The notes under the pieces are model-generated. The model had not been told where the DNA came from, searched no databases, and saw only the letters and a program-made list of their open reading frames with translations. A program made the position numbers and the translations under genes. 64,000 bases of DNA from Candidatus Aenigmatarchaeota archaeon (GTDB lineage Archaea; Aenigmatarchaeota; Aenigmatarchaeia; QMZP01; QMZT01). Below, in pieces: positions 3,098-35,303 of the stretch (the first letter of the stretch is position 1; the number at the start of each line of letters is the position of its first letter). The stretch spans positions 384,001 to 448,000 of the forward strand of contig CAVSBQ010000002.1 in the NCBI GenBank assembly GCA_963726265.1. Direction: 5' to 3'.

Positions 3098-3151
3098 AAC
3101 TTACGCTTCCAAAATTTCATGCTGAAGACTTTAAAGCAGGAGGTGACAGAG

Positions 3152-4228
3152 ATGGGCTTGAAGGAAAAGTCCAGAAAATCTAAGCTTGGAGGAAAACCAG
3201 CAAGCGTCCACGCATCCGGAGGACTTTTCAGGCCCAGAACAAAACCAGGCCTAGCGGCAGCTCTAGCCCTCGTTTGGGTCGCACTTGCCCTCTCGATAAC
3301 GGTTTCCTATGCTGAAGCGGCAGACCCCGGCCACGCTGCTTCGTCAATCTCGGCAGGAACGTTCGAGTCAGGCGATTACGCATTCCCTAACAACCTCAGC
3401 ATCACCAACAACCTGACAGTAAGCGGCAGTGTCGGCATAGGGATGCCGCCGTCCAGCTATCTGCTGCAGGTGGCCAAAACAGACAATTCAACAAATATCT
3501 CCGGCGTGCTTTATGTCAACGGGACCAGCGGCAGGGTCGGCATAATGTATGCGACACTGACGGCATCATCAGCCTTGTATGTCAACGGCAGCACTTATAC
3601 GAGCGGCACGCTTTCCAGTGGCAGCGACATTTACACCACCGGCACCGGAGATGACTTGTGGCTCGGCAACAGCACGCAGGCAAACTCCAAGCTGCAGCTG
3701 TTCGCGAACGGCGGCATCAACGCCCTTTTCTGGAACTTTACGGTGAACGAGACTACGGGCAACATCGGCATAGGAAAGATAATGCCGAACTACAAGCTTG
3801 AAGTCGAGACGACGGAGAATGCGCTGAACGTTTCAAATACGCTTTTCGTGAACGGAACTTCAGGCAGAGTCGGCATCGGGACGGCGAGTCCGGCACAGAA
3901 ACTGCAGGTTGAAGGTTGGGCAACCATAAGACTAAACACGACAGCCTCCGGTGGTCTGGCGTATGACATAAGTGCGTATCGTTACGGCGTGTCAAATGCC
4001 GGCTTTGAAATAAGGGACATCACTGCCAGCGTCACCAGAATAGCTATAGATGAAAACGGCAAAGTCGGCATCGGAACGGCAGCGCCGAGCAAGTGGCTCG
4101 AAGTGAGCAACTCGACGCAGGGCATAACCTTCGACCCGAATGTGACCTCGCCGACCATAAACACGACCGCCACGAAGGACCTTATCATAACTGCCGGCAG
4201 CGGCAACGTGATAATACAGCTGGGATGA
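3152..4228 (+). CDS. Secreted or membrane-anchored beta-repeat protein with VGIGT repeats (fibre-like)
   Basis: Hydrophobic segment followed by repeated GRVGIG/GNIGIG/GKVGIGT units; GGAGGTGA RBS before ATG 3152. Confidence 0.7.
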   Translation: MGLKEKSRKSKLGGKPASVHASGGLFRPRTKPGLAAALALVWVALALSITVSYAEAADPGHAASSISAGTFESGDYAFPNNLSITNNLTVSGSVGIGMPPSSYLLQVAKTDNSTNISGVLYVNGTSGRVGIMYATLTASSALYVNGSTYTSGTLSSGSDIYTTGTGDDLWLGNSTQANSKLQLFANGGINALFWNFTVNETTGNIGIGKIMPNYKLEVETTENALNVSNTLFVNGTSGRVGIGTASPAQKLQVEGWATIRLNTTASGGLAYDISAYRYGVSNAGFEIRDITASVTRIAIDENGKVGIGTAAPSKWLEVSNSTQGITFDPNVTSPTINTTATKDLIITAGSGNVIIQLG

Positions 4229-4324: not shown

Positions 4325-5893
4325 ATGGGCCTGCTGAAGGCGGAGTCTGTGGCATTCGTGCTGCTGCTCCTTAGCGTATGCATCGCTTCGGCGGCGGGGA
4401 ATTTCAGCTGCAGCATAACCGCAAGCGGCAGCTGCTCCTACACCAAGGTGCTTTACATGAAGAACGACACCGCAGGCTACTGGAACGCGCACGCGGAAAA
4501 CGTTTCTGCGGCGTCGTATCCGTATGCGATATGCTGCGATTCCAATGCGACGCTCGCGCTGAAATGCGGCGAAGGCGTGCTTTTCAATCTCAACACGACC
4601 ACGAACACGCACGTCCAGCGCGGCGATTACGCGGGACCGGGAATAGTTTACGGCATCGATGCGTGCATTGCCACGACGCCCGGCTACTTCAATTGCACAT
4701 ATGTCGACGACGCCTGCCCTGCCAACAGGGAATGCTTCGCCTCTATGACCAGCGACGCTGCTTCGGAGAACAACGACACCAATGCCCATGTCGGGCCGTG
4801 CGACGAATACAGGAGGAAGGTATGCTGCAGGGCCGTGAACGACATAAAGATCATGTATGTCAGCCCCACGCCTGAGGACAGCGCCAGGACGATTAACAAC
4901 AGCGTGACTATTAACGTCACCGTCGACGTGGACTCGGCTTTAACTGCCGACACGTGCATCCTCGAATGGAGTGCCGGCGCGGCCGCTGCGCAGAACGAGA
5001 CCATGGAAATGATCGGTTCGGGCAGCAGCGTGACGTGCAACGCGACCAAAGCGACGGCGGACGCGACTGTTTACACCTTCAGGGTCTACGCGAACGATTC
5101 GGCCAACGCTTTCGGCAGCGGGGCCGCAAGGCAGTTCAGGGAGAACGACGAACCGTCGAAAGTCACGCTTTCCTCGCCGGCGGACGGCTCGCACACCACG
5201 GACCGCACGCCGACTTTCCAATGGGACGCCGCAAGCGACGGCGATTTCGACACGCTCACATATTATATCAATATATCATGCTTCGGCGGCGACGGCTGCT
5301 CGGAGGACAACAGGTTCGTGAACGTGGGCACGGGCACCTCGTATACGCCATCCGAAGAGCTGGAATTCTTCGGCGACGACAACTTTTACTACAACTGGTC
5401 CGTCATGGCATTTGACAACTACGAGAACGGCACGTGGAGCGACCCATGGAACCTGACAATAGACGTGGATGTCTCGATAACCATGATCAACAGCATGGTC
5501 GACTTCGGCGAGAACAGGCTGCTCGGTTATACGGACAACACTACTGACAGCGATCCCTCCCCCTTCTCGCTGAAGAACACGGGCAACTGCATGATAGACG
5601 TCAACATATCGTCCAGCGACCTGCTGTGGGATGCGGTCTCGCAGCCCTCGGACTACTTCAACTATTCCGTGAACTGGTTTACGGGAGAGGAAGGCGCCTT
5701 CAACTGGAGCGGCTCGCAGACCAGCTCGGTGAACATGCCAGTAGTCGCGCAGAACGTGAGCTTCATAAACTATCTTAATTACACGTTCGGCAACAGCTCG
5801 GCTGAAATCGAGCTTTACATCAAGGTCCCGCCCGCGGAGCCGCCCGGGACGAAATCATCGCTTATCATATTCACGGGAGAGTATCACAGGTGA
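4325..5893 (+). CDS. Secreted Cys-rich/FN3-like protein with C-terminal pilin-like domain
   Basis: Signal peptide, Cys-rich N-domain, TPTFQW Ig/FN3 module; C-domain resembles the 11843-12519 product. Confidence 0.7.
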   Translation: MGLLKAESVAFVLLLLSVCIASAAGNFSCSITASGSCSYTKVLYMKNDTAGYWNAHAENVSAASYPYAICCDSNATLALKCGEGVLFNLNTTTNTHVQRGDYAGPGIVYGIDACIATTPGYFNCTYVDDACPANRECFASMTSDAASENNDTNAHVGPCDEYRRKVCCRAVNDIKIMYVSPTPEDSARTINNSVTINVTVDVDSALTADTCILEWSAGAAAAQNETMEMIGSGSSVTCNATKATADATVYTFRVYANDSANAFGSGAARQFRENDEPSKVTLSSPADGSHTTDRTPTFQWDAASDGDFDTLTYYINISCFGGDGCSEDNRFVNVGTGTSYTPSEELEFFGDDNFYYNWSVMAFDNYENGTWSDPWNLTIDVDVSITMINSMVDFGENRLLGYTDNTTDSDPSPFSLKNTGNCMIDVNISSSDLLWDAVSQPSDYFNYSVNWFTGEEGAFNWSGSQTSSVNMPVVAQNVSFINYLNYTFGNSSAEIELYIKVPPAEPPGTKSSLIIFTGEYHR

Positions 5894-6384
5894 ATGAAAT
5901 GGACAGGATGAAACTTTCGATAGCAGCGGCGGAGCTGGCGGTAATCGGCCTGCTGACGCTGCTGCTGGTCAACCTCGTAACCATACCGCTTGTCTCACCA
6001 CAGCACAAGCTTTACACCACGGACAGTATGCCTGAACTGGTCTGGGGCGGCATGCAGGGCGACTACGTTGTCCTGCTGGATGACAACCCGAAATTCTCGA
6101 CTCCGCTTACCGCGGAGGTTTCCGGCAACTCATACACGTTTCCGCAGGAGCTCGCTTTCGGTACGTATTACTGGAAGGTCCAGGCGGGCCCGATGTCGAG
6201 CGAGGTGCGAAGGTTCACGCTAGGCTCGAGCGTTGTCCTGTCCAGAGAAGGAGATGAGGTCAGGAACGAAGGCAACACGGAGCTGCTGGTGCATGCGCCC
6301 AGCATAACGGGCGCTTTCATGCTTGGCGTGAATGAAACGGTGGAATTGGGAGCGGAGGAAAATGTCATGGCAGAGCAGGCTTAG
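5890..6384 (+). CDS. Membrane-anchored FN3/Ig-like protein
   Basis: N-terminal TM, GTYYWKV motif; overlaps both neighbours. Confidence 0.7.
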   Translation: MNEMDRMKLSIAAAELAVIGLLTLLLVNLVTIPLVSPQHKLYTTDSMPELVWGGMQGDYVVLLDDNPKFSTPLTAEVSGNSYTFPQELAFGTYYWKVQAGPMSSEVRRFTLGSSVVLSREGDEVRNEGNTELLVHAPSITGAFMLGVNETVELGAEENVMAEQA

Positions 6385-7591
6385 GTGGCTGGCATGCGTG
6401 CTGGCGCTGGTGGCGGTGTTCAGCTGTGCCGCTGCGAACGCGGCAGCGATAGGCCTCACGCCGGGCAGGACTACCATCGACTTCGAGCCGAACATGGAAA
6501 AAACCGTGACCTTCACGATAATCAACAACGAACACAAGAACTTCAACGCGCTCGTTTACGCCGAAGGCGATCTCAAGGATTACGTCGCCCTCGGCAAGAA
6601 CATCGTCGAGTTCAAGGAAACGGACAACACGAAGGAGTTTTCATACGCCGTAAAGCTGCCTGATAAAATCGACAAGCCCGGCGACCACTGGGCCAAGATA
6701 ATCGTCATGGAAATGCCGCCGGGGACCGAGGCCGAGAAGCTCGAGGGGCAGTTTGTCATAGCCACGACCGCGGTAGTCCACCAGCTTAGGGTCAAGGTTC
6801 CCTACCCGGGCAAATACGCCGACCTTGACATGGTCGTGCAGGAAGCGGAACCAGGCCAGACCGCGACGTTCTTCGTCAAGCTCTACAACCTAGGCACCGA
6901 GGACATCTACAAGGCCTTCGCGACCATTGACATCCTGGGCCCGACCAACGAGAAGATAGCGATGCTAGAGAGCGACGAGATAGCGCTGGAATCGAAGAAG
7001 GGCGGCGAACTTATAATCCCGTGGAAGGCCGACGTCAACCCCGGCACGTATCACGCGGTCGCGACCGTAAACTACGACGGGAAAATCGGGACTGTTGAGA
7101 AGAATTTCGGCATAGGCGCGCTGAGGATAGAGGTCGTCGACGTGCAAGTGAGGAATTTCGTTTTGGGAGGCATAGCGAAGTTCGAGATAAATGTCGAGAA
7201 CAAGTGGAACCAGAAGGTCGACGGCGTATACGCGGAAGTCGTAATGAGCGACCAGAAAGGCGACACTGTGGCGAGTTTCAAGTCCGCGTCCGTCGACGTC
7301 GACGCGCTACAAAGATCGACACTCTACGCCTACTGGGACACGCAGGGCATCGAGAAAGGCGCGTACGAAGCGAAGCTCGTGTTGCACTATGCGGGCAAGA
7401 CGAGCGAGAAGGTGATGAAGACCTACGTCGAGCTCGAAAGCATAGAGACCGACATCGTAGGCTTGACCGCGAAGGTCATAACCTCCAAAGGCGGGGTGGG
7501 GCCGGGAACCGAGATACTCGTGCCGCTCGTCCTGATACTGGTGTTCATAAACGCAGGCTGGTTCTTCTACTTCAGGAGAAGGAAGAAATAG
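6362..7591 (+). CDS. Membrane-anchored multi-Ig protein (chaperone-like / WxL-interacting-like architecture)
   Basis: Signal peptide, three beta-sandwich segments, VPYPGKY linker, C-terminal TM plus RRRKK. Confidence 0.7.
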   Translation: MSWQSRLRWLACVLALVAVFSCAAANAAAIGLTPGRTTIDFEPNMEKTVTFTIINNEHKNFNALVYAEGDLKDYVALGKNIVEFKETDNTKEFSYAVKLPDKIDKPGDHWAKIIVMEMPPGTEAEKLEGQFVIATTAVVHQLRVKVPYPGKYADLDMVVQEAEPGQTATFFVKLYNLGTEDIYKAFATIDILGPTNEKIAMLESDEIALESKKGGELIIPWKADVNPGTYHAVATVNYDGKIGTVEKNFGIGALRIEVVDVQVRNFVLGGIAKFEINVENKWNQKVDGVYAEVVMSDQKGDTVASFKSASVDVDALQRSTLYAYWDTQGIEKGAYEAKLVLHYAGKTSEKVMKTYVELESIETDIVGLTAKVITSKGGVGPGTEILVPLVLILVFINAGWFFYFRRRKK

Positions 7592-7624
7592 GTCCAGTAA
7601 AAGGCGTTGCATTAATAATCCGGT

Positions 7625-8065
7625 TCAAACGGTTATTTTTTCCGAGCTTGTCGAAAGCACGGCTTCGCCATAGCTGACCTCGACCGTGAGCGAGTGCTCG
7701 CCCGGCCCGACCGCCGTGTCCAGGCCGAATTCGGCTATCGGCAAACTGTAGGCATACACGCCTCCATAGCCGTAGACTTCGTAGCTTATTGCCAGACTTG
7801 AGCCCTCGACGCGCTCATACGCGCTGCCCGTCTTTTCGATGAAGGCCTTCATGGCCATCGCTGAGCTTCTGCCGTCCAGCCGGACGGTCACGACAGCATC
7901 CTCGGGGATGAAGCCGTCCTTACCTATGGAAACGCTTATGTTTGCCGATAACTCGCTTTCCCCGGGCCTAGTGGCCGTGGCGAAACCCGTTATGTCAGGC
8001 CTGGTAATTAGAATGAGGATTAACACGATGCTCGCTACCGGCAGAATGAAAAATCTCCTGTCCAT
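7625..8065 (-). CDS. Small membrane-anchored Ig-like protein with ITGFAT motif
   Basis: N-terminal TM followed by ITGFAT; PGEHSLTVEV Ig strand. Confidence 0.7.
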   Translation of the reverse strand: MDRRFFILPVASIVLILILITRPDITGFATATRPGESELSANISVSIGKDGFIPEDAVVTVRLDGRSSAMAMKAFIEKTGSAYERVEGSSLAISYEVYGYGGVYAYSLPIAEFGLDTAVGPGEHSLTVEVSYGEAVLSTSSEKITV

Positions 8066-8166
8066 CCAGTCTTTTATTGGCGCGAAAATTTAAATATCGG
8101 TTAAAGCGATGCCCGTGCGCGCCGCGTGCCGAGCCGTTTTTATTGGGGCCGCGCCAATTATAAAAT

Positions 8167-11100
8167 ATGCTGGGGTCCGGGAGGCTGTTGGTTCTGTTTT
8201 TCGTGGCAGCTATATTAATCTTAATCGCGGGCTCGCGGAATGCCTCGGCGGCCGAATACACGTGCAATTCCGGTTCCGACTGTTCGTCCAAGATACAGGC
8301 CGCTACCAGCGGGGACACGGTAAGGCTGAACGCTTCGCTGACCTTCGCGACCATCGACTTCAACGGAGCCGACGGCATAACATTTGACTGCGACGGCTTC
8401 AGTGTCGCTGGCGTCGATGTCGGAGAAAGCATCAATGGCATTGGCATATACCTTCACGACGGCTCCAACAACAATACCATACGCGATTGCTTTTTTAACA
8501 CCCTTCAATACGGCCTGTTCATCTCCGGCGAGAACAACACGATAACGAATGCGACAATTAATTATACCATGTCTGGCGTTTTTCTGGCCGGCGACTCGAA
8601 CTACAACAGACTTGTGAACGTGACTCTGGTGGATGAAGACGTTATCATAGACTATGGCTCATCCTATGCGTGCACCGACAGCCTGGTGAACGTGACGGGC
8701 TCCGGCAACAGGCCGATAAGGTATTACAACGCTTCGGTGAACCTCACCGGAGAGGTCCTGTCGAAACTAATCCTGTGCAATGCCAGCTATTCCAACATAA
8801 CCAACATTACCGTCACGGGGGCGGTAACGGGCGGCATTGTCGCATACCAGACGAAATATTCGAATTTCAGCGCGATTAATATTTCGGCTTCATACGGCTA
8901 CAACGGGAACGTTTGGGTTTACTACTCCCACAACAATTCTTTCACAAATCTCGCGCTTGACAACAATTTCATTGGTGGCGGCGGCAGTTTGCATGTTGAA
9001 TATTCGGATGACAACACGTTTGTCAACGTTACGGCGAATTACGAACAAGGCACGGGTGTTAGTGTTTCTTCGTCCCAGAAAAATACTTTCACCGGCATCA
9101 CAGCCAACTACAACACGTATGGCATCTCACTCGATTCTTCCGATAACAACGCGTTTGTCAACATTACGGCGAATTACAATGATGGTGACGGCTTTTCTGT
9201 TAGTTCGTCGCTCAACAACACGTTCGACAGGATAATAGCCAGCAACAACTATGATGGATTTGAAATCTCTGGCTTATCCTCGTTCAACGTATTGAATAAT
9301 TCGCGCATAGAAAACAGCACGGAGTACGGCATCATCCTTTACTCATACGACCCGGACTATGCTCTCTACAACACGTTCCGCAACAACCTGTTCAACAATT
9401 CCGCGAATCTTTATTCAGACAATGATCAGAACCAGAACTACTGGAACACGACGCTGCGGGCGGGCCAGAGGATATACGCGGGCGGCAATTACATAGGCGG
9501 CAACTACTGGGCGTCCCTGGACGGGACGGGCTATTCACAGCTCTGCAAGGACGCGGACGGCGACGGCATCTGCGATTCCGCTTACGCGCCCGCCACGAAC
9601 AACACGGACTACCTGCCGCTTAGTGATCAGTATATGATAAGAGAAATCACCGCATGCAGGCTTCTGAACGAGACCGGATGGACCTACAACCTCACGCAGG
9701 ACATCACGGATTCCGCCAGCACGGCCTGCATGAACGTGACCGCAGACAACGTCACGCTCGATTGCGGAGGCCGCAGGATAGACGGCACCTATACCTTGAA
9801 CACTTACGGCGTCTATATGAAGGACAGGAAGAACGTCACCGTCAGGAACTGCACCATAACGGACTGGTGGTTCGGCGTTTTCATGAACACCAGCCTGCGC
9901 AGCAACATCTCCGCCAGCAACCTGACAGGCGACAACACCGGGCTGCGCATCCTTAACTCCTGGAACAACACCCTGAACGACAACTTCGTGAACAGCATCG
10001 GCACCGGCGTCTACCTTAGCAATTCATCGTTCAATTCCATCAGCCGCAACACGATAAAGAACTCCGATGCCGGCATTTCCTTCTATTTATCGTCCATGAA
10101 CAACACGCTGTCAGGCAATAATCTCGAGTCATTCGCAAACTACGCCCTATACATATACCAGTCGCCTGACAACTTCTTCCGCGACTCGAACATAACGAGC
10201 ACGTCGACGAACATTTACCATTTCGCGTCCGGCAATACCGTCTTCCTTAACGTGAGCCTCGACAGGACCAAAATCACCGTGGACGCGGGCGCAGTTTACA
10301 TCAACTGGTATCTGGACGTGAGGGTCGTCGGCGAAAGCGGCCCGGCGCTGGACCAGGCCAACGTGACCGTGAAAAACAGCGGGAACACGACCCTGTTTTC
10401 CGGGACGACCAACGCGTCTGGCTACATAATCAGGCAGAACGTGACCGAGTTCCACCAGAACTTCACCGGCCAGTTTTACTACAACAACCACACCATAAAC
10501 GCCAGCAAGTTCGCCTACGTCTCAGGCCAGGCGTCCGTAAACGTTACGTCAAACCGGCTGGTCACCATCACGCTAATCGAGAGCGTGCCTTACGTGCAGG
10601 TCAAGACATACACGCTGGGCCTGACCGAGACCGACACCATAAAGCCGGGCAGGATAGTCAGGATACGGGCCATCGTCAACTACATCATGGGCAGGGATTA
10701 TCTGGCGAATGCCACCATCCTGATAAGGGACAACCAAGGCTCGACTGTCGTGGATGGCGCGCTGATGCCCAACGTCTCCGTCATAACGAACGGCTACACC
10801 TATGAATATAATTATACTATTGCCAACGGCTCCGCAGGCGTATGGTCGATAAACGTCACCGCAGCGGATACGCTGGGAAAGAAGGGATACGGCAGCAAGA
10901 AAATCGCCATCCTCCCGATCACGCTCCGGATAAGGCTCGTCCTGAACAGCACGTCCGACAGCATCTACGTGCCCGGGGAGGTCGAGACGCCCTTCTCCGG
11001 CCTCACCACGTCGGACTACGCCAGCCCGGACCACCAGTATATTGCCTCGTATTCCGGCGGCCCCTCAGGCAGCCTGGAGGCGCTGGTGTTCTCGCAGCTC

Positions 11101-11439
11101 AATCCCATATCCGTTTTCACGGAGAAAAACGCGGACACCTACGCCATCGGGACCAGGCAGAGGTTCTCCGGCTCCATGGTCCTGCTGGTGTTTTCCAAAG
11201 GCGACTGGAAGGCGGTGAACAATCGAATAGGCTCGGTCGAGAGCGGCGAGTTCTTTGCGTCCTCCGAGCCCAGCTTCGGGTTCGGCCTAGGAAAGGCCTA
11301 CCCACTCAAGGTCGTGCTCTCCTACAGCAACTTGAACATCACCAGAGATCTCGCGCTCTGGAAGGGCTACAACAGGCTCGCCGTCGAGAACGAGGGAGCG
11401 CAGGGTGGCAAGGTCAGCATCAGCGTCACAAGGGGCTGA
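8167..11439 (+). CDS. Large secreted parallel beta-helix (NosD/CASH-like) glycoprotein
   Basis: Signal peptide; repeated GIxLxxSxNN units; GGNYW motif; abundant N-x-S/T sequons. Confidence 0.85.
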   Translation: MLGSGRLLVLFFVAAILILIAGSRNASAAEYTCNSGSDCSSKIQAATSGDTVRLNASLTFATIDFNGADGITFDCDGFSVAGVDVGESINGIGIYLHDGSNNNTIRDCFFNTLQYGLFISGENNTITNATINYTMSGVFLAGDSNYNRLVNVTLVDEDVIIDYGSSYACTDSLVNVTGSGNRPIRYYNASVNLTGEVLSKLILCNASYSNITNITVTGAVTGGIVAYQTKYSNFSAINISASYGYNGNVWVYYSHNNSFTNLALDNNFIGGGGSLHVEYSDDNTFVNVTANYEQGTGVSVSSSQKNTFTGITANYNTYGISLDSSDNNAFVNITANYNDGDGFSVSSSLNNTFDRIIASNNYDGFEISGLSSFNVLNNSRIENSTEYGIILYSYDPDYALYNTFRNNLFNNSANLYSDNDQNQNYWNTTLRAGQRIYAGGNYIGGNYWASLDGTGYSQLCKDADGDGICDSAYAPATNNTDYLPLSDQYMIREITACRLLNETGWTYNLTQDITDSASTACMNVTADNVTLDCGGRRIDGTYTLNTYGVYMKDRKNVTVRNCTITDWWFGVFMNTSLRSNISASNLTGDNTGLRILNSWNNTLNDNFVNSIGTGVYLSNSSFNSISRNTIKNSDAGISFYLSSMNNTLSGNNLESFANYALYIYQSPDNFFRDSNITSTSTNIYHFASGNTVFLNVSLDRTKITVDAGAVYINWYLDVRVVGESGPALDQANVTVKNSGNTTLFSGTTNASGYIIRQNVTEFHQNFTGQFYYNNHTINASKFAYVSGQASVNVTSNRLVTITLIESVPYVQVKTYTLGLTETDTIKPGRIVRIRAIVNYIMGRDYLANATILIRDNQGSTVVDGALMPNVSVITNGYTYEYNYTIANGSAGVWSINVTAADTLGKKGYGSKKIAILPITLRIRLVLNSTSDSIYVPGEVETPFSGLTTSDYASPDHQYIASYSGGPSGSLEALVFSQLNPISVFTEKNADTYAIGTRQRFSGSMVLLVFSKGDWKAVNNRIGSVESGEFFASSEPSFGFGLGKAYPLKVVLSYSNLNITRDLALWKGYNRLAVENEGAQGGKVSISVTRG

Positions 11440-11568
11440 CGGTGGTGATGTTTAGGATGATGGGCGCGGCAAAAGGCAAAATTACATCAAAAAAGTTCAA
11501 TTTCGGTTCAAGTTCAATATAGATTTAAATAAGTTGAGGAGAAATATAATTTATAAGGGGTGGGTGAT

Positions 11569-11787
11569 ATGGCAAAATCCAACAACATGCTTTTAGTTCT
11601 GGCAATAGCGCTTCTCATAGTCTCGCTGTTCGGAACCGTTGCAATACTCAACAGCGTGGGCATGGCGAACGTGCCGGTAACAAAGCCATCAACCATACAG
11701 CAGGGGCAGGTAAAGCTGGAGATAGTGCCCGATGCCGGCGCGGACGCGGCTACCGGGTATGTGACTCTTAACATACTGCCTGAATAA
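11569..11787 (+). CDS. Small membrane-anchored protein (TM plus two short beta strands)
   Basis: SNN+TM N-terminus; QGQVKLEIVP and TGYVTLNILP; TATA and GGTGA RBS upstream. Confidence 0.7.
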   Translation: MAKSNNMLLVLAIALLIVSLFGTVAILNSVGMANVPVTKPSTIQQGQVKLEIVPDAGADAATGYVTLNILPE

Positions 11788-11842
11788 GCAGCAGACGATT
11801 AATGAAAGTTCAGAGGTTATATTCAAATTTAAAGGGGGTAAC

Positions 11843-12519
11843 ATGACACAAGTGTCTAATAACTTGATAGCAGGTTTGCTTGTAGTGGCGATAGTGATAT
11901 CAGGCTTCGGCCTGCTGACAGTCGCCAACATGGGACGACAGGTAGCGATAACAGGCGGCGCGACTACCGGCGTCGGGGCGGCGAACGTCTCGATTACCGG
12001 AGCAGTGTCCATAGATCTGATTGCAGGAAGGACAGCGATAGACTTCGATGCAGGAACGCTGGACGGCGTCACCGAGGACAATAGCCACGACGACCGTCAA
12101 CTACGGCACTTTCGACGACGGCTCGGAGGGCAACGGCACGGACCAGACAGGATGCTCCAACACGGAAGCAACGTGTGCATATCCGCTGGTAGTCAGGAAC
12201 ATAGGCAACGTAAACGTGTCGCTTAACATAACCGCGAGCAAGACTGCGGCCAGCCTTCATCGGAGGCGCAAGCGGCCAATTGCAGGAGTTCCTGGGCAAG
12301 GAAAACGAATCTGCAACGTGCGGCAAAGACTGGACAGTCGGCGGTGGCTTCGGAGAAGGAACCTACACAGCGCTTACCACATCGGAAACGGTTGTTTGCT
12401 CCAGCATGGACTTCATCCCTGCGGCCAACGAGATAAGGATTCACCTCAGGCTCACCATACCAGCCGATGCAGTCGGAACGAAAGCCGAGACCATAACATT
12501 GGGCGCCATAACCGCGTAA
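11843..12519 (+). CDS. Pilin-like secreted protein, split by two apparent +1 frameshifts (~12073, ~12254)
   Basis: ORFs 11843, 12048 and 12280 join into one coherent ~224 aa protein (...DAGTLDGVT/RTIATTT...KTAAS/FIGGASGQLQEF...TITLGAITA). Confidence 0.7.
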
Positions 12520-12535
12520 GCAAACGGTGTTTCAA

Positions 12536-13706
12536 ATGAAAAAAGCAGCTTTGGCAGCCCTTTTCTTATTTTTTAATTTATGTTTTCTCGTTTCTCCTGC
12601 TGCAGCCATATCCATCGCGCCAGCCAAGATAACGATGGACTTCGTCCCGGGCTACGAGGCGGAGTTCGATGGCTTCATAACGAACACACAGGACGTCGAG
12701 GTGGCATTCGACGTCTACACGGACGGCGAGCTCATGGGCTACATGACGCTGCTCACGCCGGGCATCATAACGCTCAGCCCGGGCCAGACGGCGAACTACA
12801 AGTTCAAGATAAAGCTGCCCTCCGCTTTCGAAATACCCGGCCCGCACACGGGCATCATCTGGGCGTCGCAGCACGTGGAGGAGCCGACTGGGGAGGGCAT
12901 TGCCATAAGGCTGAAGGCCGGAACGAAGGTGGTAGTAAACGTCCCGTATCCGGGCAAATACGTTGAAATGAAGCTGGACATAAAGAATGCAAAGGTCAAC
13001 GACACCGTGCTCTTTGAAATAACGGCAACGAACCTGGGGAAAGGAGAACATAACCAGCGCCAAAGGCGAGATAAAGCTGATGGATTCCGTGAACAGGACG
13101 CTCGTCATCTTGCAGACCGCGGCGAAGCCGATAATAAGCACGCAGAGCGAAACGCTGCAGGCGACGTGGTTTTCAGACGCCGAACCAGGCCTGTATCAGG
13201 CCGAGGCATCGGTTTTCTACGACGGCGAAACCGCAAGCAGCAGGACCACGTTCAACCTCGGCGCGCCGCTGGTGAAAATCGTGAACATGTCAGCCGAGCC
13301 TATCGTCAACGGAACCATCGGCAAGATATACACGCAGATACAGAGCTACTGGGGCCAGGAAATAGAGGACGTCTACGTCGAGATTTTCATCAGGGACGAG
13401 ACAGGCAAACAGGTCAGCCAGGACAAGAGCAGCAGCATAAAGGTCAAGCCGTTCGACAAGGTCACCCTTACGAACTACTGGGACACCGGCCAGGGCTTCG
13501 AACCCGGCGACTACACGGGCCTGGCCATCCTCCATTACCTCGACAAGAACGACACCGCGGAAACTGGCCTGATGCTGGCGGCGAAGCCGGGCATGTTCGC
13601 GGGCTACGAAATCGTGATTATAATAATTATAGCGGCATTCGCTGCAGCAGGCGTGCTTTTGCTCAGAAGAAGGGAGGGGAAATTCACCCAGAAAAAGCTC
13701 ATGTAA
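12536..13706 (+). CDS. Paralog of 6362-7591, with one apparent +1 frameshift (~13042)
   Basis: ISIAPAKITMDFVP...VPYPGKY...NLGK/ENITSAKGEIKLMD...YWDT...C-terminal TM; aligns by eye to the 6362 product. Confidence 0.75.
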
Positions 13707-13742
13707 GCAATTTAACTTTTCTCAGCCAATTTCTAATCAACT

Positions 13743-16223
13743 ATGAAAGAGTTATCCAATAACGTGCTCGTCATACTGATATCAGTATTCGTAATAATTA
13801 CCCTGCTGGAGTTTGCGGCCTACCAGATAAAATACGGTGAGATAACGCTAAAAGCGACTGCAGTCGGCTTCGTTGGCATGTGCATCGACAACAACCCGCT
13901 CATCATACCCATCGCCTCGCAGACCGCCTACATAGGCACGCCCTTCGCATACGACGTTAACACGACGGTGGCGAACGACCTCAACGTGACGTTCTATGAC
14001 GACACTCCCCTTTTCACCATAAACTACCAGACGGGCATGATAGCCTTCACGCCCCAGGAAGGCGACGAGAACGACTACTACATAAACATATCAGTGATTT
14101 CCTCGTGCGGAAGGCTCAGCGACGTCAAGAGCATGAGACTCTCCGTGAAGTTCGAGAACAGGGCGCCAATCCTCGACCCTATCCCTGACCAGGCCATGAA
14201 CCAGAATGACCTCTTCACATACGACGTCAACGCGACTGACGCCGACAACGACACGCTGTTCTTCGGCGACAACACGACGATGTTCCAGATAAATTCCAAC
14301 AACGGCCTGATATACTTCGTGCCCCAGCAGGCCGACGTGGGCAACCAGTCCGTCCTCATATGGGTCATGGACGGCAGGGGAGGCATCGACTGGCAGATAG
14401 TGAACTTCGAGATAACGGACGTCAACGACGCGCCGGTGCTCGCCACCATAGGCGCGCAGACGGCGATAATAAACGAGACCTATGTTTATGACGTGAACGC
14501 AACCGACGCCGATGTCAAGCCGGAATGGAACAACCTCAGCTTTTACGACGACGCGGCGTTCTTCAACATAAATCCGTCAACGGGCCTGATACAGTTCTTC
14601 GTCAACGGCTCCTACAACGGGACGTATTCGCTGAACATCACGGTGAGCGACGGCTACCTTTCCGACGAGGAGACAATAAGCTTCTCCGTGATAGCGGTGA
14701 ACCACGCCCCCAACATAACGTCCTGGTATCCAGAGAACGCCACGCTTGAGATAAGCGAGGGCGAAAGCAGCTACTTCAACATAACCAAGTTCGACCTTGA
14801 CGGGACCATACCTTCGACGGCATGGTATCTGGACGGCGTCGTGCTCGCCGGCCAGACCGCGGACGAATATACGTATTACGCGGGCTACACTTCATCCGGG
14901 ACGCACAACCTGACCGTCGTGATAACCGACGGCGAGCTGGATGATGCGCAGGCATGGACAATTAACGTGAGGGACGTACCGCAGATAATTTCGGGAGCGG
15001 CCGGGCCAAGCCAGATCATGCCGCCCGCATGCACGGAGAACTGGAGATGCACGGAATGGGCCGTATGCCCGGTCTACGAAATCCAGACCAGGTCGTGCAG
15101 GGACCTCAGCAGCTGCGGGACCATAAGCTTCAAGCCGGACGAGAGGAGGAAATGCTTCTACACGCCGCAGCCCTCGTGCAGCGACGACGTCATCAACTGC
15201 CACGACGGCGGCTGCGAGATATGGATAGACTGCGGAGGACCATGTCCTCCGTGCGCGACCTGCAGCGACAAGCTCAAGAACTGCCACATGATGTCGAAAC
15301 TGAACACGCTGTGCGAGGAGGGCGTCGACTGCGGAGGGCCGTGCCCGACCTGTCCTGAAGGGCCGCAGCCCGCCGTATGCGGCAATGCCATCTGCGAGCA
15401 GGGCGAGCTGCTGTCCTGCACCCAGGACTGCGGCCTGTTCTTCGGCCAGTTCATAATAGTCGTCATAGCCTTCGGTGGCGCTTCGATATTCCTTTACAGA
15501 TTCTCCGCGCTCGCCGTCCTTTTCTACAGGAAGAAAATAAGGCCGCTGCCATACACGAACATCGAACTCCTCGGAGCGGCGGCGCTCAGGCAGCTGCATC
15601 TCATCCAGCTCGAGATGGGCAGGAAGACGACGAGGGCCATAGTCTCGGAATTATCCTCGGTCATCAGGGACTTCTTCGCGAAGGCGTTCGAGGTCCGCAG
15701 GAAATTCACCTACATAGAGCTGGCCGAGGTCGCGAGGAAGAGGAAACTTGACAAGCCGCTCGTGAAGAGGATAACAGACTTCTCCATAAAGATGACGGAG
15801 CTTGAATACAAATACGCTGAGCCGTCGCTTGCCGAGCTCGCCGCGGCCATAAAGGCTGCGATAGCCATCGTCGAGAGGCTGAGCGGCGTGCGCCTCCACG
15901 AGGCGCTCGGCAAGAAGGCGGAGGAGGAAATACATGCGAAGGAGCCGCAAGAGAAGCCGGTCCAACTGCCCCAGGGTCCGCAGGCAAAGGGAGAAGGCGA
16001 ATATAAAATGACTCAGTCGGACGAGGAGAGCGTAAGGCGTTTGCAGGTGCTTATAGACGAAGGTGAGAAGGCAATCACGAGCCACGCAACGGCGGAAGCT
16101 GAAAAGGCATACGCAAGGATACGGGAGACTTACGACAGGCTCCGCCCCGAGGTAAAAATGAAGCTATACGCCGAAACCATCCGCATAATAAAACTGTATA
16201 ACGAGATAATGAAAAGCGAATAG
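13743..16223 (+). CDS. Cadherin/Ig-repeat membrane protein with Cys-rich region and cytoplasmic helical tail
   Basis: NxAP/YDVNATD repeats, CTENWRCTEW, DCGGPC repeats, second TM, charged C-terminus. Confidence 0.8.
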   Translation: MKELSNNVLVILISVFVIITLLEFAAYQIKYGEITLKATAVGFVGMCIDNNPLIIPIASQTAYIGTPFAYDVNTTVANDLNVTFYDDTPLFTINYQTGMIAFTPQEGDENDYYINISVISSCGRLSDVKSMRLSVKFENRAPILDPIPDQAMNQNDLFTYDVNATDADNDTLFFGDNTTMFQINSNNGLIYFVPQQADVGNQSVLIWVMDGRGGIDWQIVNFEITDVNDAPVLATIGAQTAIINETYVYDVNATDADVKPEWNNLSFYDDAAFFNINPSTGLIQFFVNGSYNGTYSLNITVSDGYLSDEETISFSVIAVNHAPNITSWYPENATLEISEGESSYFNITKFDLDGTIPSTAWYLDGVVLAGQTADEYTYYAGYTSSGTHNLTVVITDGELDDAQAWTINVRDVPQIISGAAGPSQIMPPACTENWRCTEWAVCPVYEIQTRSCRDLSSCGTISFKPDERRKCFYTPQPSCSDDVINCHDGGCEIWIDCGGPCPPCATCSDKLKNCHMMSKLNTLCEEGVDCGGPCPTCPEGPQPAVCGNAICEQGELLSCTQDCGLFFGQFIIVVIAFGGASIFLYRFSALAVLFYRKKIRPLPYTNIELLGAAALRQLHLIQLEMGRKTTRAIVSELSSVIRDFFAKAFEVRRKFTYIELAEVARKRKLDKPLVKRITDFSIKMTELEYKYAEPSLAELAAAIKAAIAIVERLSGVRLHEALGKKAEEEIHAKEPQEKPVQLPQGPQAKGEGEYKMTQSDEESVRRLQVLIDEGEKAITSHATAEAEKAYARIRETYDRLRPEVKMKLYAETIRIIKLYNEIMKSE

Positions 16224-16299: not shown

Positions 16300-17238
16300 T
16301 TATGGCAGCGTCCTGTATTTCGTGTTCACTAGGCCCCATTCGGCGAACAGGAGGCCTAGCGCCGCAACGAGGCATATGAGCGCGAGGTTGACGGGAAGCT
16401 TTTGCGTGCCGGAAAGCGCTATGCCCTCGTATATCACGGAAAGCTCGCTTTCGTTCCTTGCCTCGTAATAAACTCCCCCGGTTTCGTTCGCTATCCTGGC
16501 CAGCGTCGACGGGTCGAGCTTCGAGACGAATGAGAGGTTCATCTCCGGGAAGCCTCCGCCGGCTTCGGTGCCCATGCCTATCGCGTATATGGCGACGTGA
16601 TTGTCGTTGGCGTATGCTATCGCCTCGTCGATGCTCGGTCCGACGTTGTTCTGCCCGTCCGTCAGGAGGATGATGGCCCTGGGCTTTTCGCTGCCAACTA
16701 GGAGGTTGACGGACGAGATTATGGCGGAGCCTATCGCCGTCCCGCCAGCGAGCTCGACGGATATGTTTTTTATTACGTCCTCCACCCGCGCCTTTTCAGG
16801 GGTCAGCTCCTGCTTTATGAAGCCCACGCCGGCGAAGGATACGACGCCTATCTCAGTCAGCTCCGGGGCGGCGTCGACGAAGGTGAGGGCCGATTTCTTT
16901 GCAGCCTCCAGCCTGCTGGGCTCGAAATCCTTTGCCAGCATGCTGCCGGAGGCATCGAGCGCGAGGACGAAGTTCGTATCGCCTGTTCTGCCTTCATACC
17001 ATAATGTCGCGCCGGAAACCGCGAGTATGAGTAGCAGCAGGGTCACGAGCCGCATGGCAAGAAGGACGTAGTTTTTCGAGAAAATCCTCTCCCCGGTCAC
17101 GTATTCTATGGCCGGGAAGTTGGCGAATTTTAACGCCTTTTTCCTGGTGAACCTAAGGCTCACGAAATGCGCGAGGATCATGAGCGGTATCGCCACCAGG
17201 AACCAGAGATAAAGCGGGTTCGCGAAAGTCATCTCCAT
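16300..17238 (-). CDS. BatA-like VWA domain membrane protein
   Basis: FANPLYLW N-terminus, MIDAS DASGSM, LLTDG, C-terminal TM. Confidence 0.9.
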   Translation of the reverse strand: MEMTFANPLYLWFLVAIPLMILAHFVSLRFTRKKALKFANFPAIEYVTGERIFSKNYVLLAMRLVTLLLLILAVSGATLWYEGRTGDTNFVLALDASGSMLAKDFEPSRLEAAKKSALTFVDAAPELTEIGVVSFAGVGFIKQELTPEKARVEDVIKNISVELAGGTAIGSAIISSVNLLVGSEKPRAIILLTDGQNNVGPSIDEAIAYANDNHVAIYAIGMGTEAGGGFPEMNLSFVSKLDPSTLARIANETGGVYYEARNESELSVIYEGIALSGTQKLPVNLALICLVAALGLLFAEWGLVNTKYRTLP

Positions 17239-18128
17239 GCCCATTTCCTCCTTACCATAAAGAATTCGGTGAGGGGCTTGATAAACGGTTCTGCAGTCGA
17301 TGTTTTCAACAGGTCGAGGTTCCCCTTCATGAATGCGCTGTTTATCGCGGCCTCCTCGTCCGCCACGAACTTTTTGTATTGCTCGCCCATTTTCCTCGGG
17401 CTCGCGAGCAGCATGCTGTCCGAATAAGGGTCCTGCAGGACGATCTGGCCCACGTCTTCCTCGGGCATGACTTCGTCCCTCGGGTCCCTGACCATTACGC
17501 CGATGATGTCGAATTTCATGGAGGCCATCCTGAGGATCTTGTGCCACTCTGGCTTGAAGCCTATGAAATCGGATATGATTACCATGAGGCCGCGCTCCTT
17601 TGACGTCTTCATGACGAATTTCACCGCGTTCTCGAGGTCATAGCCGCCGCCGTAGAAGGCCGGGTTGACCAGCGAGTTGAGCATGATGTAGAAGTGCTTC
17701 TTGCCGCCTGAAGGCGGGATCATCTTGACAATCTTGTCGTTGAACATGACGAGACCGGCTTTGTCATTCGCCTCCAGGATGAAATAGGCGAACGTGGCCG
17801 CGAGCTCCGCGGCGTATTCGAGCTTCAGCTTCTCGGTCGAGCCGAAAATCATGGAAGACGACGTGTCGAGAAGAATGTAAACGTTGAGATTCCTCTCCTC
17901 CCTGAAGATCTTTATCAGCGTGTCGTTCGCACGTATGCTGGCCTTCCAGTCAATCCTGCTGGCGTCGTCGCCGTCCGTGTAGACCCTGTAATCCTCGAAT
18001 TCGAGACCCTTGCCCTTGTAGACGCTCCTGTATTTGCTCGTGACCTTCGTGTTGATGAGCATCTTTATGATAAGCTCGAGCTCCTTCATCAGGGCAACGA
18101 CGTCAACCCTCAGCCTCTTGACGGCCAT
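17229..18128 (-). CDS. DUF58 family protein
   Basis: GLEFEDYRVY..GDD..RIDWKAS, DTSSSM, IISDF. Confidence 0.9.
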   Translation of the reverse strand: MAVKRLRVDVVALMKELELIIKMLINTKVTSKYRSVYKGKGLEFEDYRVYTDGDDASRIDWKASIRANDTLIKIFREERNLNVYILLDTSSSMIFGSTEKLKLEYAAELAATFAYFILEANDKAGLVMFNDKIVKMIPPSGGKKHFYIMLNSLVNPAFYGGGYDLENAVKFVMKTSKERGLMVIISDFIGFKPEWHKILRMASMKFDIIGVMVRDPRDEVMPEEDVGQIVLQDPYSDSMLLASPRKMGEQYKKFVADEEAAINSAFMKGNLDLLKTSTAEPFIKPLTEFFMVRRKWAWR

Positions 18129-18195
18129 AAATTATATTTGTCGCTTCGGCTTAATTAAAAACAGTTTTTCCTTTTCCGTTTTCTGTATAGAAAGC

Positions 18196-19188
18196 TTACG
18201 GGATCGAGACCTTTTCCAGAATCTCCTTCACGATGTCGTCCGTCTTTATCCCCTCGGCCATGCCCTCGTAATTCAGGATTATCCTGTGGCGCATGACCGG
18301 CATGGCGATTTCCTTGACGAAATCAGGTATGACGAAATTCTTGCCGTGGAGAAGCGCGTTGGCCTTGGAAACTATGAAGAGCCCTATCGAAGCCCTCGGA
18401 GAGGAGCCGATTTCTATGTATTTGCCCAGCTTCAGGCCGTATTTTTTCGGCCTCCTGGTCGCGTCGACCAGGCTGACGCAATACTGCTCGACCTTCTGGC
18501 TCATATAAATCTTCTTGGTGTCCTCCTGCATCCTGATTATGTCCTGCGGGCTGATGGCAGCCCTTATCGCGAAGTCGTCGAACTTGTAAAGGTTGATGTT
18601 CTTCCTGAGTATCTTAATCTCCTCTTCGCTCGTCGGGTAGTCCATGTAAAGCTTGAGGAGGAACCTGTCTATCTGGGCCTCGGGCAGCGAATACGTGCCT
18701 GCGGATTCTATGGGGTTCTGGGTCGCCATGACGAAGAACGGGCTCGGCAGCAAGAACGTCTCCTTGCCTATCGTCACCTGCCTCTCGCCCATGGCCTCGA
18801 GGAGGGCGGACTGCGTTTTCGGCGGCGCTCTGTTTATTTCGTCCGCGAGGATGAAATTCGTGAACACCGGGCCCTTGACGACGTAGAAGCCCTTGTCCTT
18901 GTTGTATGCGGTTATGCCCGTGATGTCTGTGGGCAGCAAATCGACCGTGAACTGTATCCTCTTGAAGTCGCAGCCTGTCGCTTTCGCCACCGCGCGGATG
19001 AGAAGGGTCTTGGCTATGCCGGGAACGCCTTCCACGAGCGTGTGGCCGTTGCACAGGAGGCCGAGAAAAAGGCCGCTGACGACGTCATGCTGGCCGACTA
19101 TGAGTTTCGCTATTTCCTTTTTCACGAGGTCCAGCTTTGCCCTGTGGGCTTCTATTGTCCTTTCGTCCACACCCTCGGCTTCGGCCAT
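18196..19188 (-). CDS. moxR: MoxR family AAA+ ATPase
   Basis: GVPGIAKT, RIQFTVDLLPTDITG, LADEINRAPPKTQSALLEAM, ATQNPIE. Confidence 0.95.
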   Translation of the reverse strand: MAEAEGVDERTIEAHRAKLDLVKKEIAKLIVGQHDVVSGLFLGLLCNGHTLVEGVPGIAKTLLIRAVAKATGCDFKRIQFTVDLLPTDITGITAYNKDKGFYVVKGPVFTNFILADEINRAPPKTQSALLEAMGERQVTIGKETFLLPSPFFVMATQNPIESAGTYSLPEAQIDRFLLKLYMDYPTSEEEIKILRKNINLYKFDDFAIRAAISPQDIIRMQEDTKKIYMSQKVEQYCVSLVDATRRPKKYGLKLGKYIEIGSSPRASIGLFIVSKANALLHGKNFVIPDFVKEIAMPVMRHRIILNYEGMAEGIKTDDIVKEILEKVSIP

Positions 19189-23841: not shown

Positions 23842-23966
23842 GCCGGGATGGCGGAATGGTAACGCGCTAGCCTGGAAAAAGGCTTAGGATTCCGCTGATG
23901 CGGAATTAACAAAAACAGACAGCTAGTCTCCTTACGGGGTCCTGGGTTCGAATCCCAGTCCCGGCG
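23842..23966 (+). tRNA. tRNA-Ser(GGA) with 43-nt intron at 37/38 (23878-23920)
   Basis: GCCGGGA/TCCCGGC acceptor, CTAGC-CT-GGA-A|A-GCTAG, long variable arm, TTCGAAT T-loop. Confidence 0.93.
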
Positions 23967-29776: not shown

Positions 29777-29926
29777 TGCGGGGGCAGGGATTCGAACCCT
29801 GGAACACATTCCTCGTTCTTCGCTTTCGCGAAAGGCACTCTAAGTGAATAGGTCTTGAGCGTCGACATCATCTTGAATCAGGGTTCAAGACCATCCTATC
29901 GCCTTTAACCACTTGGCTACCCCCGC
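29777..29926 (-). tRNA. tRNA-Leu(CAA) with two non-canonical introns: 30/31 (29861-29895) and variable arm (~29808-29839)
   Basis: Reverse complement: GCGGGGG...ATAG|G-CT-CAA-GA-CCTAT-TCACTTAG|GTGTTC-CAGGG TTCGAAT CCCTG CCCCCGC A; first intron has a CGAT/GTCG BHB helix. Confidence 0.88.
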
Positions 29927-30546: not shown

Positions 30547-30643
30547 TGCGCCGGCCGGGATTTGAACCCGGGCCACAGGCTTGGCAAGCTTGCACCAAAC
30601 CAACTTCATGTGTCTGTGTCCTACCAGGCTAGACTACCGGCGC
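30547..30643 (-). tRNA. tRNA-Gly(GCC) with 24-nt intron at 29/30 (30590-30613)
   Basis: Reverse complement: GCGCCGG...CAG|GC-TT-GCC-AA-GCCTG...CCGGG TTCAAAT CCCGG CCGGCGC A. Confidence 0.92.
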
Positions 30644-35224: not shown

Positions 35225-35303
35225 GACAACCGCAATGGAGCAGCCTGGAGTGCTCGCTGGGCCCATAACCCAGAGGTCGATGGTTCAAATCCATCCCCCG
35301 CTA
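35207..35303 (+). tRNA. Initiator tRNA-Met(CAT) with 22-nt intron at 7/8 (35214-35235); alternative 5' exon at 34623-34629 would give a 606-nt intron
   Basis: AGCGGGG|TGGAGCAGCCTGGAGTGCTCG CTGGG CC CAT AA CCCAG...CCCCGCT A; A1-U72 and three G-C pairs mark an initiator; BHB helix GCGG/CCGC. Confidence 0.9.

Follow-up and report, generated by a model that had tools for sequence, protein, structure and literature searches.

Candidate donor-strand surface assembly system with membrane-anchored helper proteins in DPANN archaea

How DPANN archaea recognise and attach to their hosts is little understood, and most of their surface proteins are unannotated. A stretch of 64,000 nucleotides (nt) from a Candidatus Aenigmatarchaeota archaeon (assembly GCA_963726265.1, contig CAVSBQ010000002.1, positions 384,001 to 448,000; hereafter the window) raises the question of whether a run of genes at positions 4325 to 16223 encodes the parts of a surface fibre joined by donor-strand exchange. 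An earlier note, made from the sequence alone, had read this locus as a surface filament system with pilin-like subunits, membrane-anchored chaperones and donor-strand peptides, an interpretation that our analysis supports in part. We think that the locus comprises two modules, B-C-D and G-H-I-J, of a DPANN-wide cell-surface assembly system, and we lean towards regarding it as an archaeal counterpart of the donor-strand-exchange pili that use membrane-anchored chaperones, namely the Elr/WxL pili of Bacillota and the Pam pili of bacteria of the Candidate Phyla Radiation (CPR). This reading rests on homologies, gene order across phyla, the position of a shared domain, the folds of monomer models and the enrichment of a motif. 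The genes of the two modules are listed below (TM, transmembrane segment; SNN, Ser-Asn-Asn; Ig, immunoglobulin).

B, 4325-5893, plus strand: secreted protein of 522 amino acids; Sec-type signal peptide and Cys-rich part at the N-terminus, then Ig/FN3-like domains, and an H-like module at the C-terminus
C, 5890-6384, plus strand: membrane protein of 164 amino acids; TM at the N-terminus, then an FN3-like domain, and a short beta segment at the C-terminus
D, 6362-7591, plus strand: protein with a signal peptide, three Ig-like domains, a C-terminal TM and an RRRKK end
G, 11569-11787, plus strand: protein of 72 amino acids with an SNN+TM N-terminus and two amphipathic strands, GQVKLEIV and GYVTLNIL
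H, 11843-12519, plus strand: pilin-like subunit with SNN+TM, the strand ITGGATTGVGAANVSIT and an H-like beta-sandwich; frameshifted
I, 12536-13706, plus strand: paralog of D with a signal peptide, Ig-like domains and a C-terminal TM; frameshifted
J, 13743-16223, plus strand: protein of 826 amino acids that starts with SNN+TM and the strand GEITLKATAVGFVGMCI, continues with cadherin/Big_9-type Ig domains and a Cys-rich region, and after a second TM ends in a cytoplasmic tail of approximately 230 residues

The two modules are linked by a domain common to H and the C-terminus of B, as the earlier note had claimed. In B the H-like module lies at approximately nt 5369-5890, with the core domain at 5462-5890. 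A hidden Markov model (HMM) of the small H-like proteins in related loci matched the C-terminus of B with E 2.8e-50 (HMM positions 21-184) and the three frame pieces of H with E 1.1e-14, 4.2e-9 and 1.6e-9, and an hhalign comparison of 62 small H-like proteins (alignment A2) with 61 B-type C-termini (A3) gave a probability of 99.9% and E 1.7e-32 over 148 columns. With BLASTP of B against an intact H ortholog (locus L006) only marginal (E 0.017), the signal first noticed in the sequence is faint but real. No significant Pfam or NCBIfam family was found for B, C, D, G, H or I; NCBIfam likewise gave nothing useful for J, one I ortholog, one protein of the M family described below or the 62 H-like proteins. 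HMM searches found no further copies of the H-like domain or the D family elsewhere in the 64-kb window.

These genes also stand together in other genomes. A scan of one genome per GTDB species yielded 111 stretches with a relative of D, of which 78 loci were kept, from metagenome-assembled genomes of Aenigmat-, Woese-, Pace-, Nano- and Micrarchaeota; a few bins are labelled Methanosarcinales or Bacteriovoracaceae, labels that look like mis-binning. Directly upstream of 112 of 119 D-family genes lies an H-domain gene, or a C gene behind one: the partner is a small H-like gene for 45, C for 34, a gene for a large protein for 29 and a fragment for four, and seven have none. Helper and subunit genes within 10 kb of each other are also a mark of the WxL/Elr systems. 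In one recurrent arrangement, a large protein with a terminal H-like domain is followed by C (37-39 loci) and a D-type gene. The other runs from a G-like gene through one or two small H-like genes and an I-type gene to an M-family gene (38 loci) and a J-like gene, and both occur together in 38 of 77 loci. The earlier proposal would have fallen had the genes not co-occurred elsewhere, and they clearly do. Clustering of the neighbourhoods revealed no conserved ATPase, peptidase or pore-like or usher-like family nearby.

The single components keep their places in these arrangements. Relatives of B occur in 63 of the 78 loci, directly upstream of C/D. The C family (37 ORFs, that is open reading frames, in 37 loci; 39 by phmmer) always lies between B-type and D-type genes, and C, which ends in the motif ITGAF..GVNETVEL, is possibly an adaptor or anchor for the B-D module. 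G-like ORFs number 31 in 31 loci, 28 of them directly before a small H-like gene; small H-like genes number 63 in 50 loci, with at least two copies in 12; and J-type genes follow I in 31 of the 78 loci. The M family consists of TM proteins of approximately 142 amino acids with a small beta domain and an FG.IPPG...R motif. They are encoded directly after the I-type gene in 38 loci (among them L008, L011, L018, L021, L023, L052, L056 and L076), carry neither the SNN nor the strand motif, match NCBIfam 'choice-of-anchor D' weakly (E 0.0036) and are absent from the window and its closest relatives, L003 and L006.

The position of the H-like domain is as constant as its company. Iterated HMM searches found it in 188 ORFs from 74 of the 78 loci, and, in the manner of WxL adhesins with the subunit domain last, it ends within three amino acids of the C-terminus in all 60 large locus proteins. 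Searched alone (profile A5), the domain gave 2,688 clusters at 50% identity with E<=1e-3, of which 1,618 reached E<=1e-10 and 647 reached E<=1e-30; their named members belong to Aenigmat-, Woese-, Nano- and Micrarchaeota and are all called 'hypothetical'. Among the 150 best representatives, which range from 127 to 5302 amino acids, the domain ends within five amino acids of the C-terminus in 147, and none carries two full copies. Payloads recognised in 57 representatives are mostly lectin-like (Laminin_G_3 in 26, Sialidase-N in five, Beta_helix and Big_13 in four each, the rest propellers and others). B is a candidate tip adhesin or cargo protein with an acceptor domain only.

Could the locus simply be a 'surface protein island', in which the H-like proteins, G, J, D, I and K (a repeat protein encoded further downstream) form an envelope lattice or coat that needs no dedicated assembly? 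All products are predicted to be extracytoplasmic and rich in N-x-S/T sequons and Ig-like domains, the neighbours A, F, K and an upstream Laminin_G_3 protein are also surface proteins, and the D family, with 40-78% identity between members of different phyla, is more conserved than is usual for the partner of an adhesin. However, a fixed gene order and the pairing of one domain with one partner family across phyla exceed what a loose island would give, and a domain that is terminal in 147 of the 150 best of approximately 2,688 clusters points to a common attachment or assembly step. We regard such a coat as improbable.

The adjacency of H-domain and D-family genes (112/119) and the C-terminal position of the domain are as compatible with a dock as with a pilin. 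D and I could be stalks or receptors to which a complete H-like domain docks, fastening the lectin-like B or a small coat protein H to the cell surface with neither strand exchange nor a polymer. This arrangement matches the older view that 'WxL binds WxLIP' as well as cohesin-dockerin pairs, and the SlaA/SlaB arrangement of Sulfolobales S-layers is an analogue. We consider it rather unlikely, and the evidence on the helper and the subunit bears on it from both sides.

That D and I are paralogs, as had been proposed, is evident from D-family HMM matches to the two pieces of I (E 1.5e-27 and 2.9e-42), 34% identity of D to the intact I ortholog of L006 (E 3e-56) and the motifs VPYPGKY and YWDT common to both. 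Of 8,000 candidates scored, 364 or more are related to the family at E<=1e-3, and the named relatives among the 120 listed are all from Aenigmat- or Nanoarchaeota or an unclassified archaeon. The reading frame of D is open as far upstream as 6332, and 6398 is the start in the database model. An AlphaFold2 (AF2) model of D built with alignment A1 (predicted local distance difference test, pLDDT, 84) contains domains at residues 18-134, 141-239 and 244-354 and a helix at 369-396; followed by RRRKK, this helix gives D a C-terminal TM, as in the WxL/Elr helper ElrE and in PamC and PamD of the Pam system. A build of three Ig-like domains and a TM is stalk-like, in keeping with a dock. The first domain bears a long hairpin (strands 95-106 and 125-134) around a low-confidence or disordered tip of variable length (112-120). 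Two of its basic residues recur among 120 sequences: R24 in the first strand (R in 101, K in 7) and K133 at the end of the second hairpin strand (K in 79, R in 25), a strand with one hydrophobic face.

Several weak signals connect this helper with the WxL system. Foldseek matched the D model to the Enterococcus faecium WxLIP structures 9i25_C ('bound to long WxL'; E 7.4e-9) and 9i1y_A (E 5.1e-8), in a list that also includes RbmA and a CfaB trimer. At E<=0.05, WxLIP_HBD (DUF3324, PF11797) matches 14 of 25 members of the D family, the best at 1.6e-6. At E<=1e-3 it matches 18 of 120, and WxLIP_PGBD (DUF916, PF06030) one of 120; for six of the 120 relatives listed, a PF11797 label had been precomputed. 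In the ESM-Atlas, four look-alike clusters of the first domain of D carry WxLIP_PGBD (0.85-0.86), and the nearest named clusters of the C-terminal domain of B carry WxL (0.80; present in 20% of the cluster members) and SCPU (0.78); these are leads, not evidence. The D and H-domain signals agree in direction, and none passes a family threshold for the window proteins: window D scores below the gathering thresholds of DUF916 and DUF3324. Remote homology of D to the WxLIP families is possible, and D could serve as a membrane-anchored chaperone, or as a dock, for the H-like domain at the end of B. DUF916/DUF3324 proteins are described in the abstract of one study as binding WxL domains and linking surfaces (PMC10599100), which would suit docking. 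According to a later preprint, that same WxL system, the model for such docking, has since been reinterpreted as a donor-strand pilus (10.64898/2026.10.17.759780).

As a separate observation, the TM helix of D-type proteins is highly conserved: it carries the motif I-N-x-G-W-F-x-Y-F-R-R-R-K-K (D residues 381-391, approximately 7540-7575), with N385 and W388 invariant in 120 sequences. Of 67 B-linked D-family genes, 45 have the submotif N-x-[GSA]-W-F, compared with 0 of 45 H-linked paralogs, a distribution that hints at a partner inside the membrane.

G, H and J share a hallmark at the N-terminus. G (MAKSNNMLLV), H (MTQVSNNLIAG) and J (MKELSNNVLVIL) all start with M-x-x-x-S-N-N and continue with a hydrophobic segment of approximately 21 residues, and 80 aligned G-, H- and J-type N-termini from other genomes have the consensus E-I-S-N-N-x-L (S in 87%, the next N in 66%). 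The TM is followed by G-x-h-x-h-x-h (h, hydrophobic) in 59 of 63 H-like proteins, 30 of 31 G-like proteins and nine of 12 J-like proteins, where shuffled sequences gave expectations of 25, 7.7 and 2.3. The shared N-terminus and strand thus hold up as first described, and so does the portrayal of the 72-residue G as little more than a TM and two such strands. G is a candidate membrane-anchored strand donor. J, which has Big_9 and He_PIG matches and whose N-terminus is matched by the H-like HMM (E 1.6e-6), is a candidate base anchor whose donor strand and membrane anchor lie at opposite ends, at least as good in this role as G. The amphipathic strand behind the membrane segment of G, H and J is left unexplained if the H-like domain merely docks. 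The TM-length N-terminal segment of the H-like proteins may stay uncleaved, a feature that sits well with a dock.

H-like proteins also have a conserved 'ITG[FGA]A' site 8-20 residues past the membrane segment, where we predict cleavage and removal of the TM segment of H. I-T-G-[FA]-[AF] followed by an N-x-[ST] strand was also seen in the neighbouring E (DITGFATATRPGESELSANISVSI; 7625-8065, minus strand) and near the C-terminus of C (SITGAFMLGVNETVEL; 6290-6384, plus strand) and may be a common processing or strand signal. The N-terminus of K, RFSGFFALTTGENASLAL, resembles the ITGFA..G.ANVTI motif of the H-like proteins.

A short conserved N-terminus, a hydrophobic helix and a beta domain also make up the build of archaeal type IV pilins, and the window contains a gene for a type IV prepilin-type peptidase (Peptidase_A24; 62619-63452, plus strand; 30.5 bits against a cutoff of 26.5), approximately 46 kb from the locus. 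SNN+TM could then be a class III signal processed by the A24 enzyme, and H, G and J the major and minor pilins of a type IV pilus whose machine is encoded elsewhere. Class III signals of the FlaFind type have [KRDE][GA] directly before the hydrophobic stretch. Such a motif is present in only four of 63 H-like, two of 31 G-like and none of 12 J-like N-termini, and the archaeal pilin and flagellin N-terminal models of Pfam and NCBIfam matched none of 62 members. The helix of the H model described next covers just residues 6-29, no type IV pilin is among the Foldseek matches listed for H, the same domain stands at the C-terminus of Sec-signal proteins without such a helix, and the genes conserved nearby include neither an ATPase nor a platform component. 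We judge this origin to be very improbable.

Returning to the donor-strand reading, the fold of H also bears on it. The intact H ortholog of L006, modelled by AF2 with A2 (pLDDT 81; predicted template modelling score, pTM, 0.70), consists of the helix at 6-29, approximately 25 residues without regular secondary structure and an eight-strand domain; the irregular part includes 'GTANVSIT', which is unpaired in the monomer. Among 41 Foldseek matches listed, 21-23 are donor-strand-complemented filament subunits, all weak. The best are CanA cannulae (9h8b, E 0.014, prob 0.99, TMt 0.58; also 7uii and 9hdi), and Hyper2 (9bab), TasA (8aur, E 0.08), two 'TLP-1' fibres, FimA, PapA, CfaB, CsuA/B, CupE, CS20 and CooA follow. 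The resemblance to Csu, WxL, TasA and DUF916/DUF3324 structures for which the earlier note had proposed a search was recovered in weak form (H with CsuA/B and TasA, D with WxLIP), and for H it did not extend to any match at E<=1e-3. These donor-strand fold neighbours, together with the tandem H copies of 12 loci, are further features that docking leaves unexplained.

Several results weigh against the donor-strand reading itself. The loci were gathered through D, and co-occurrence was measured one way only, so the pairing shows that D nearly always has an H-domain partner and not the converse. No sequence method ties the H-like domain to WxL, TasA, SCPU or any pilin family: among 62 small H-like proteins Pfam gave 0 relevant matches, including none to the WxL domain (PF13731) at E<=0.05 and none to Peptidase_M73/TasA, and NCBIfam gave just 12 single-member, chance-level matches at E<=0.1 (among them a YehD fimbrial protein, E 0.014). 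Profile searches of PDB sequences with A1, A2 and A5 returned chance-level matches only, and Foldseek with the H ortholog against the PDB returned 0 at E<=1e-3.

The helper adds to this list. The best Foldseek matches of D are Ig-repeat proteins of a generic kind, from ciliary complexes, the 50 matches listed include no chaperone-usher chaperone, TM-scores to WxLIP are low (TMt 0.36-0.39), and D has three Ig-like domains, not two. Window D matches PF11797 with E 0.021-0.026 and 15 bits against a cutoff of 28.9, and has no PF06030 match. Since CARDB is equally common in the D family (21 of 120), generic Ig-likeness could explain the signal. A neighbour-joining tree of the D family (Biopython) shows no clean split by partner type (97/112), for which reason we do not argue for co-evolution. 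The hydrophobic segment of H is TM-length (approximately 21 amino acids), with the putative ITG site 8-20 residues beyond it; uncleaved, the products would be membrane-tethered and would form no free fibre.

In this window, moreover, H, the presumed major subunit, and I, its helper, carry frameshifts, and the correction of the 11843 product to which the earlier note refers is indeed needed. H is spread over three frames, with switches near 12070-12075 and near 12253, and I over two, with a switch near 13038-13042 within a gggg/aaa run. In tblastn comparisons with the intact orthologs of L003, L006 and L068, each of the three breaks is a +1 insertion, and the long neighbours B, F, J and K are free of them. 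As the insertions are separate and lie at unrelated sequences, and as the orthologs are intact, we attribute them either to decay in this genome or to local mis-assembly; programmed frameshifting and an alternative genetic code were rejected on the same grounds. With the H-I pair broken, only the B-C-D module is certainly intact here.

How, then, might the system work? We propose that its core is a pair formed by the H-like beta-sandwich of approximately 140-180 residues and the membrane-anchored three-Ig protein encoded directly downstream (D after B/C, I after H). D or I would catch the H-like domain as it exits from the Sec channel and, binding it through the amphipathic hairpin strand of the first domain, hold the unfinished fold at the membrane. 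The groove would then be passed on to a strand from the next subunit, such that H, being both donor and acceptor, could form chains, and a fibre of some polymer length would result. G or the N-terminus of J, having strands but no acceptor domain and being retained in the membrane, would serve as anchors, and B, with an acceptor domain and no free strand, would end up distal as the adhesin. A role in host attachment may be expected of such fibres.

If so, chaperone-primed donor-strand exchange, so far described for Gram-negative bacteria and, in two 2026 preprints, for Bacillota and CPR (10.64898/2026.10.17.759780; PMC13278184), would extend to Archaea. Approximately 2,700 'hypothetical' protein clusters would gain a name. 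In its boldest form, the proposal would make this the first helper-dependent donor-strand-exchange fibre in Archaea, DPANN-wide, distantly homologous to the DUF916/DUF3324-WxL pili and parallel to Pam, with lectin-tipped fibres as the attachment device of episymbionts. Pili with membrane-anchored chaperones would then be a solution that single-membrane cells of both domains either inherited from ancient times or exchanged repeatedly. That much we hold to be doubtful. A literature search on DPANN pili, donor strands, chaperone-usher systems and WxL/DUF916, with subscription journals mostly outside its scope, found no description of the cluster. Conserved in several DPANN phyla, the cluster provides a testable parts list made up of a helper, a subunit, anchors and lectin-like adhesins of modular build.

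Two further genes lie within the locus:

E, 7625-8065, minus strand: protein of 146 amino acids with a TM, then DITGFATATRPGESELSANISVSI, then a small beta-rich domain
F, 8167-11439, plus strand: secreted parallel beta-helix (NosD-like) protein of 1090 amino acids between the two modules

E (15 ORFs in 15 loci) is a conserved neighbour in Aenigmatarchaeota-type loci, and its membership of the system is uncertain. F is present in 19 of the 78 loci and matches NosD (E 6.4e-38) and Beta_helix (E 1.5e-24) in Pfam. The H-like HMM found no H-like domain in it, for which reason we rejected F as a second adhesin, and it is probably outside the core of the system.

The surroundings contain additional predicted surface proteins. 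At the start of the window, a 5'-open protein (3-1895, plus strand) has two Laminin_G_3 domains and no H-like domain; it is followed by A (3119-4228, plus strand), whose five repeats G-[RNK]-V-G-I-G..P..K-L-[EQ]-V are reminiscent of tail-fibre proteins, and the order of these two genes and B is kept in L002, L007 and L012. Directly downstream of J lies a BatA/VWA, DUF58 and MoxR-AAA operon (16300-19188, minus strand), which also stands beside J-type genes in related Aenigmatarchaeota loci. K (19319-23539, plus strand) is a cadherin/Big_9 repeat protein of 1406 amino acids with a C-terminal TM, and K-type genes follow J in L021, L022, L027, L068 and L073. After the A24 gene, a 3'-open ORF (63661-64000, plus strand) has the signal-like N-terminus KRLIAGGLATLAIGATLVAGGLAATTF. 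Elsewhere in the window, tRNA matches at 23842-23966, 29777-29926, 30547-30643 and 41130-41273 are 97-150 nt long and are therefore taken as intron-bearing archaeal tRNA genes, and weak partial tRNA matches were found at 35236-35295 and 62513-62568. A LAGLIDADG homing-endonuclease-like ORF (34640-35224, plus strand) lies directly before the first of these partial matches, in the part of the window with the lowest GC content (0.448).

Among the closest known systems is the Elr/WxL operon (ElrA-E) of Enterococcus faecalis and other Bacillota. As described in the preprint cited above (10.64898/2026.10.17.759780), ElrD subunits are joined into a pilus by donor-strand exchange, which a membrane-anchored DUF916/DUF3324 chaperone primes. 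In the models of that study ElrA, which combines a variable payload with a WxL domain at its C-terminus, forms the tip, and the strand-only ElrB is a terminator. The DPANN locus resembles this system in having, encoded beside the subunits, a membrane-anchored helper that starts with Ig-like domains and ends in a TM, and small subunits made of a donor-type N-terminal strand and a beta-sandwich. Large adhesins of variable payload with the subunit sandwich as last domain match the 'invariant C-terminal module' pattern of WxL tip adhesins, a small strand-only protein is a candidate terminator, and neither system has an usher or an ATPase. The differences are likewise several. Our host is an archaeon, whereas the WxL census of the same preprint, based on one RefSeq proteome per genus and Pfam thresholds, found Bacillota only; no WxL Pfam match was obtained here, and window D falls below the family thresholds. 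The DPANN helper has three extracellular domains and the Elr/WxL helper two, anchoring would be by TM segments (G, J) rather than LPxTG and sortase, and a TM-length SNN signal-anchor replaces the ordinary signal peptide of the subunits. Strand exchange in DPANN is a prediction from genes and monomer models. We describe the system as an archaeal, TM-anchored version of a membrane-chaperone donor-strand pilus, with a predicted mechanism, and not as a demonstrated member of the WxL family.

The Pam pili of the CPR bacterium Ca. Mycosynbacter amalyticus offer a second parallel. In these pili, Ig-like pilins are joined by strand exchange with the help of two PapD-like chaperones with a C-terminal TM, the terminator PamR consists of an N-terminal strand and a C-terminal TM, and the pilins are reported as exclusive to CPR (PMC13278184). 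Compared by architecture alone, both systems belong to ultrasmall episymbiont lineages and combine Ig-like pilins with two paralogous chaperones that end in a TM (PapD/FimC-like in Pam, candidates in DPANN) and no trans-envelope machine, and PamR, whose strand and TM lie at opposite ends, is comparable to J. In DPANN, however, large adhesins carry the acceptor domain, whereas the Pam tip pilin is a single-domain protein.

The earlier comparison with WxL/Csc systems was apt: the parts list fits, and D matches DUF916/DUF3324 weakly. The accompanying appeal to chaperone-usher logic holds for the chaperone half only, since no usher-like component is conserved nearby. PapD has an Arg/Lys pair, an F1-G1 hairpin and a donor strand. 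The basic residues and long hairpin in the first domain of D recall that pair and that hairpin, and the weak fold resemblance of H to FimA, PapA, CfaB and CsuA/B extends the likeness to the Pap, Fim, Csu and CFA/I subunits; an Arg/Lys pair of chaperone-usher chaperones is also mentioned in the Elr preprint (10.64898/2026.10.17.759780). The DPANN system differs in that it has no usher and no outer membrane and that its helper is membrane-anchored, and PapD-family Pfam models matched neither D nor I at E<=0.1. By fold, the best matches of H, all weak, are CanA cannula subunits and TasA-type fibres. Cannulae and the bundling pili or TasA-like proteins are extracellular filaments of archaea and Firmicutes built by strand complementation. 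The same preprint says that archaeal strand-donation pili assemble without a chaperone (10.64898/2026.10.17.759780). Whereas such filaments need no dedicated helper, the DPANN loci couple a helper-like gene to nearly every subunit gene.

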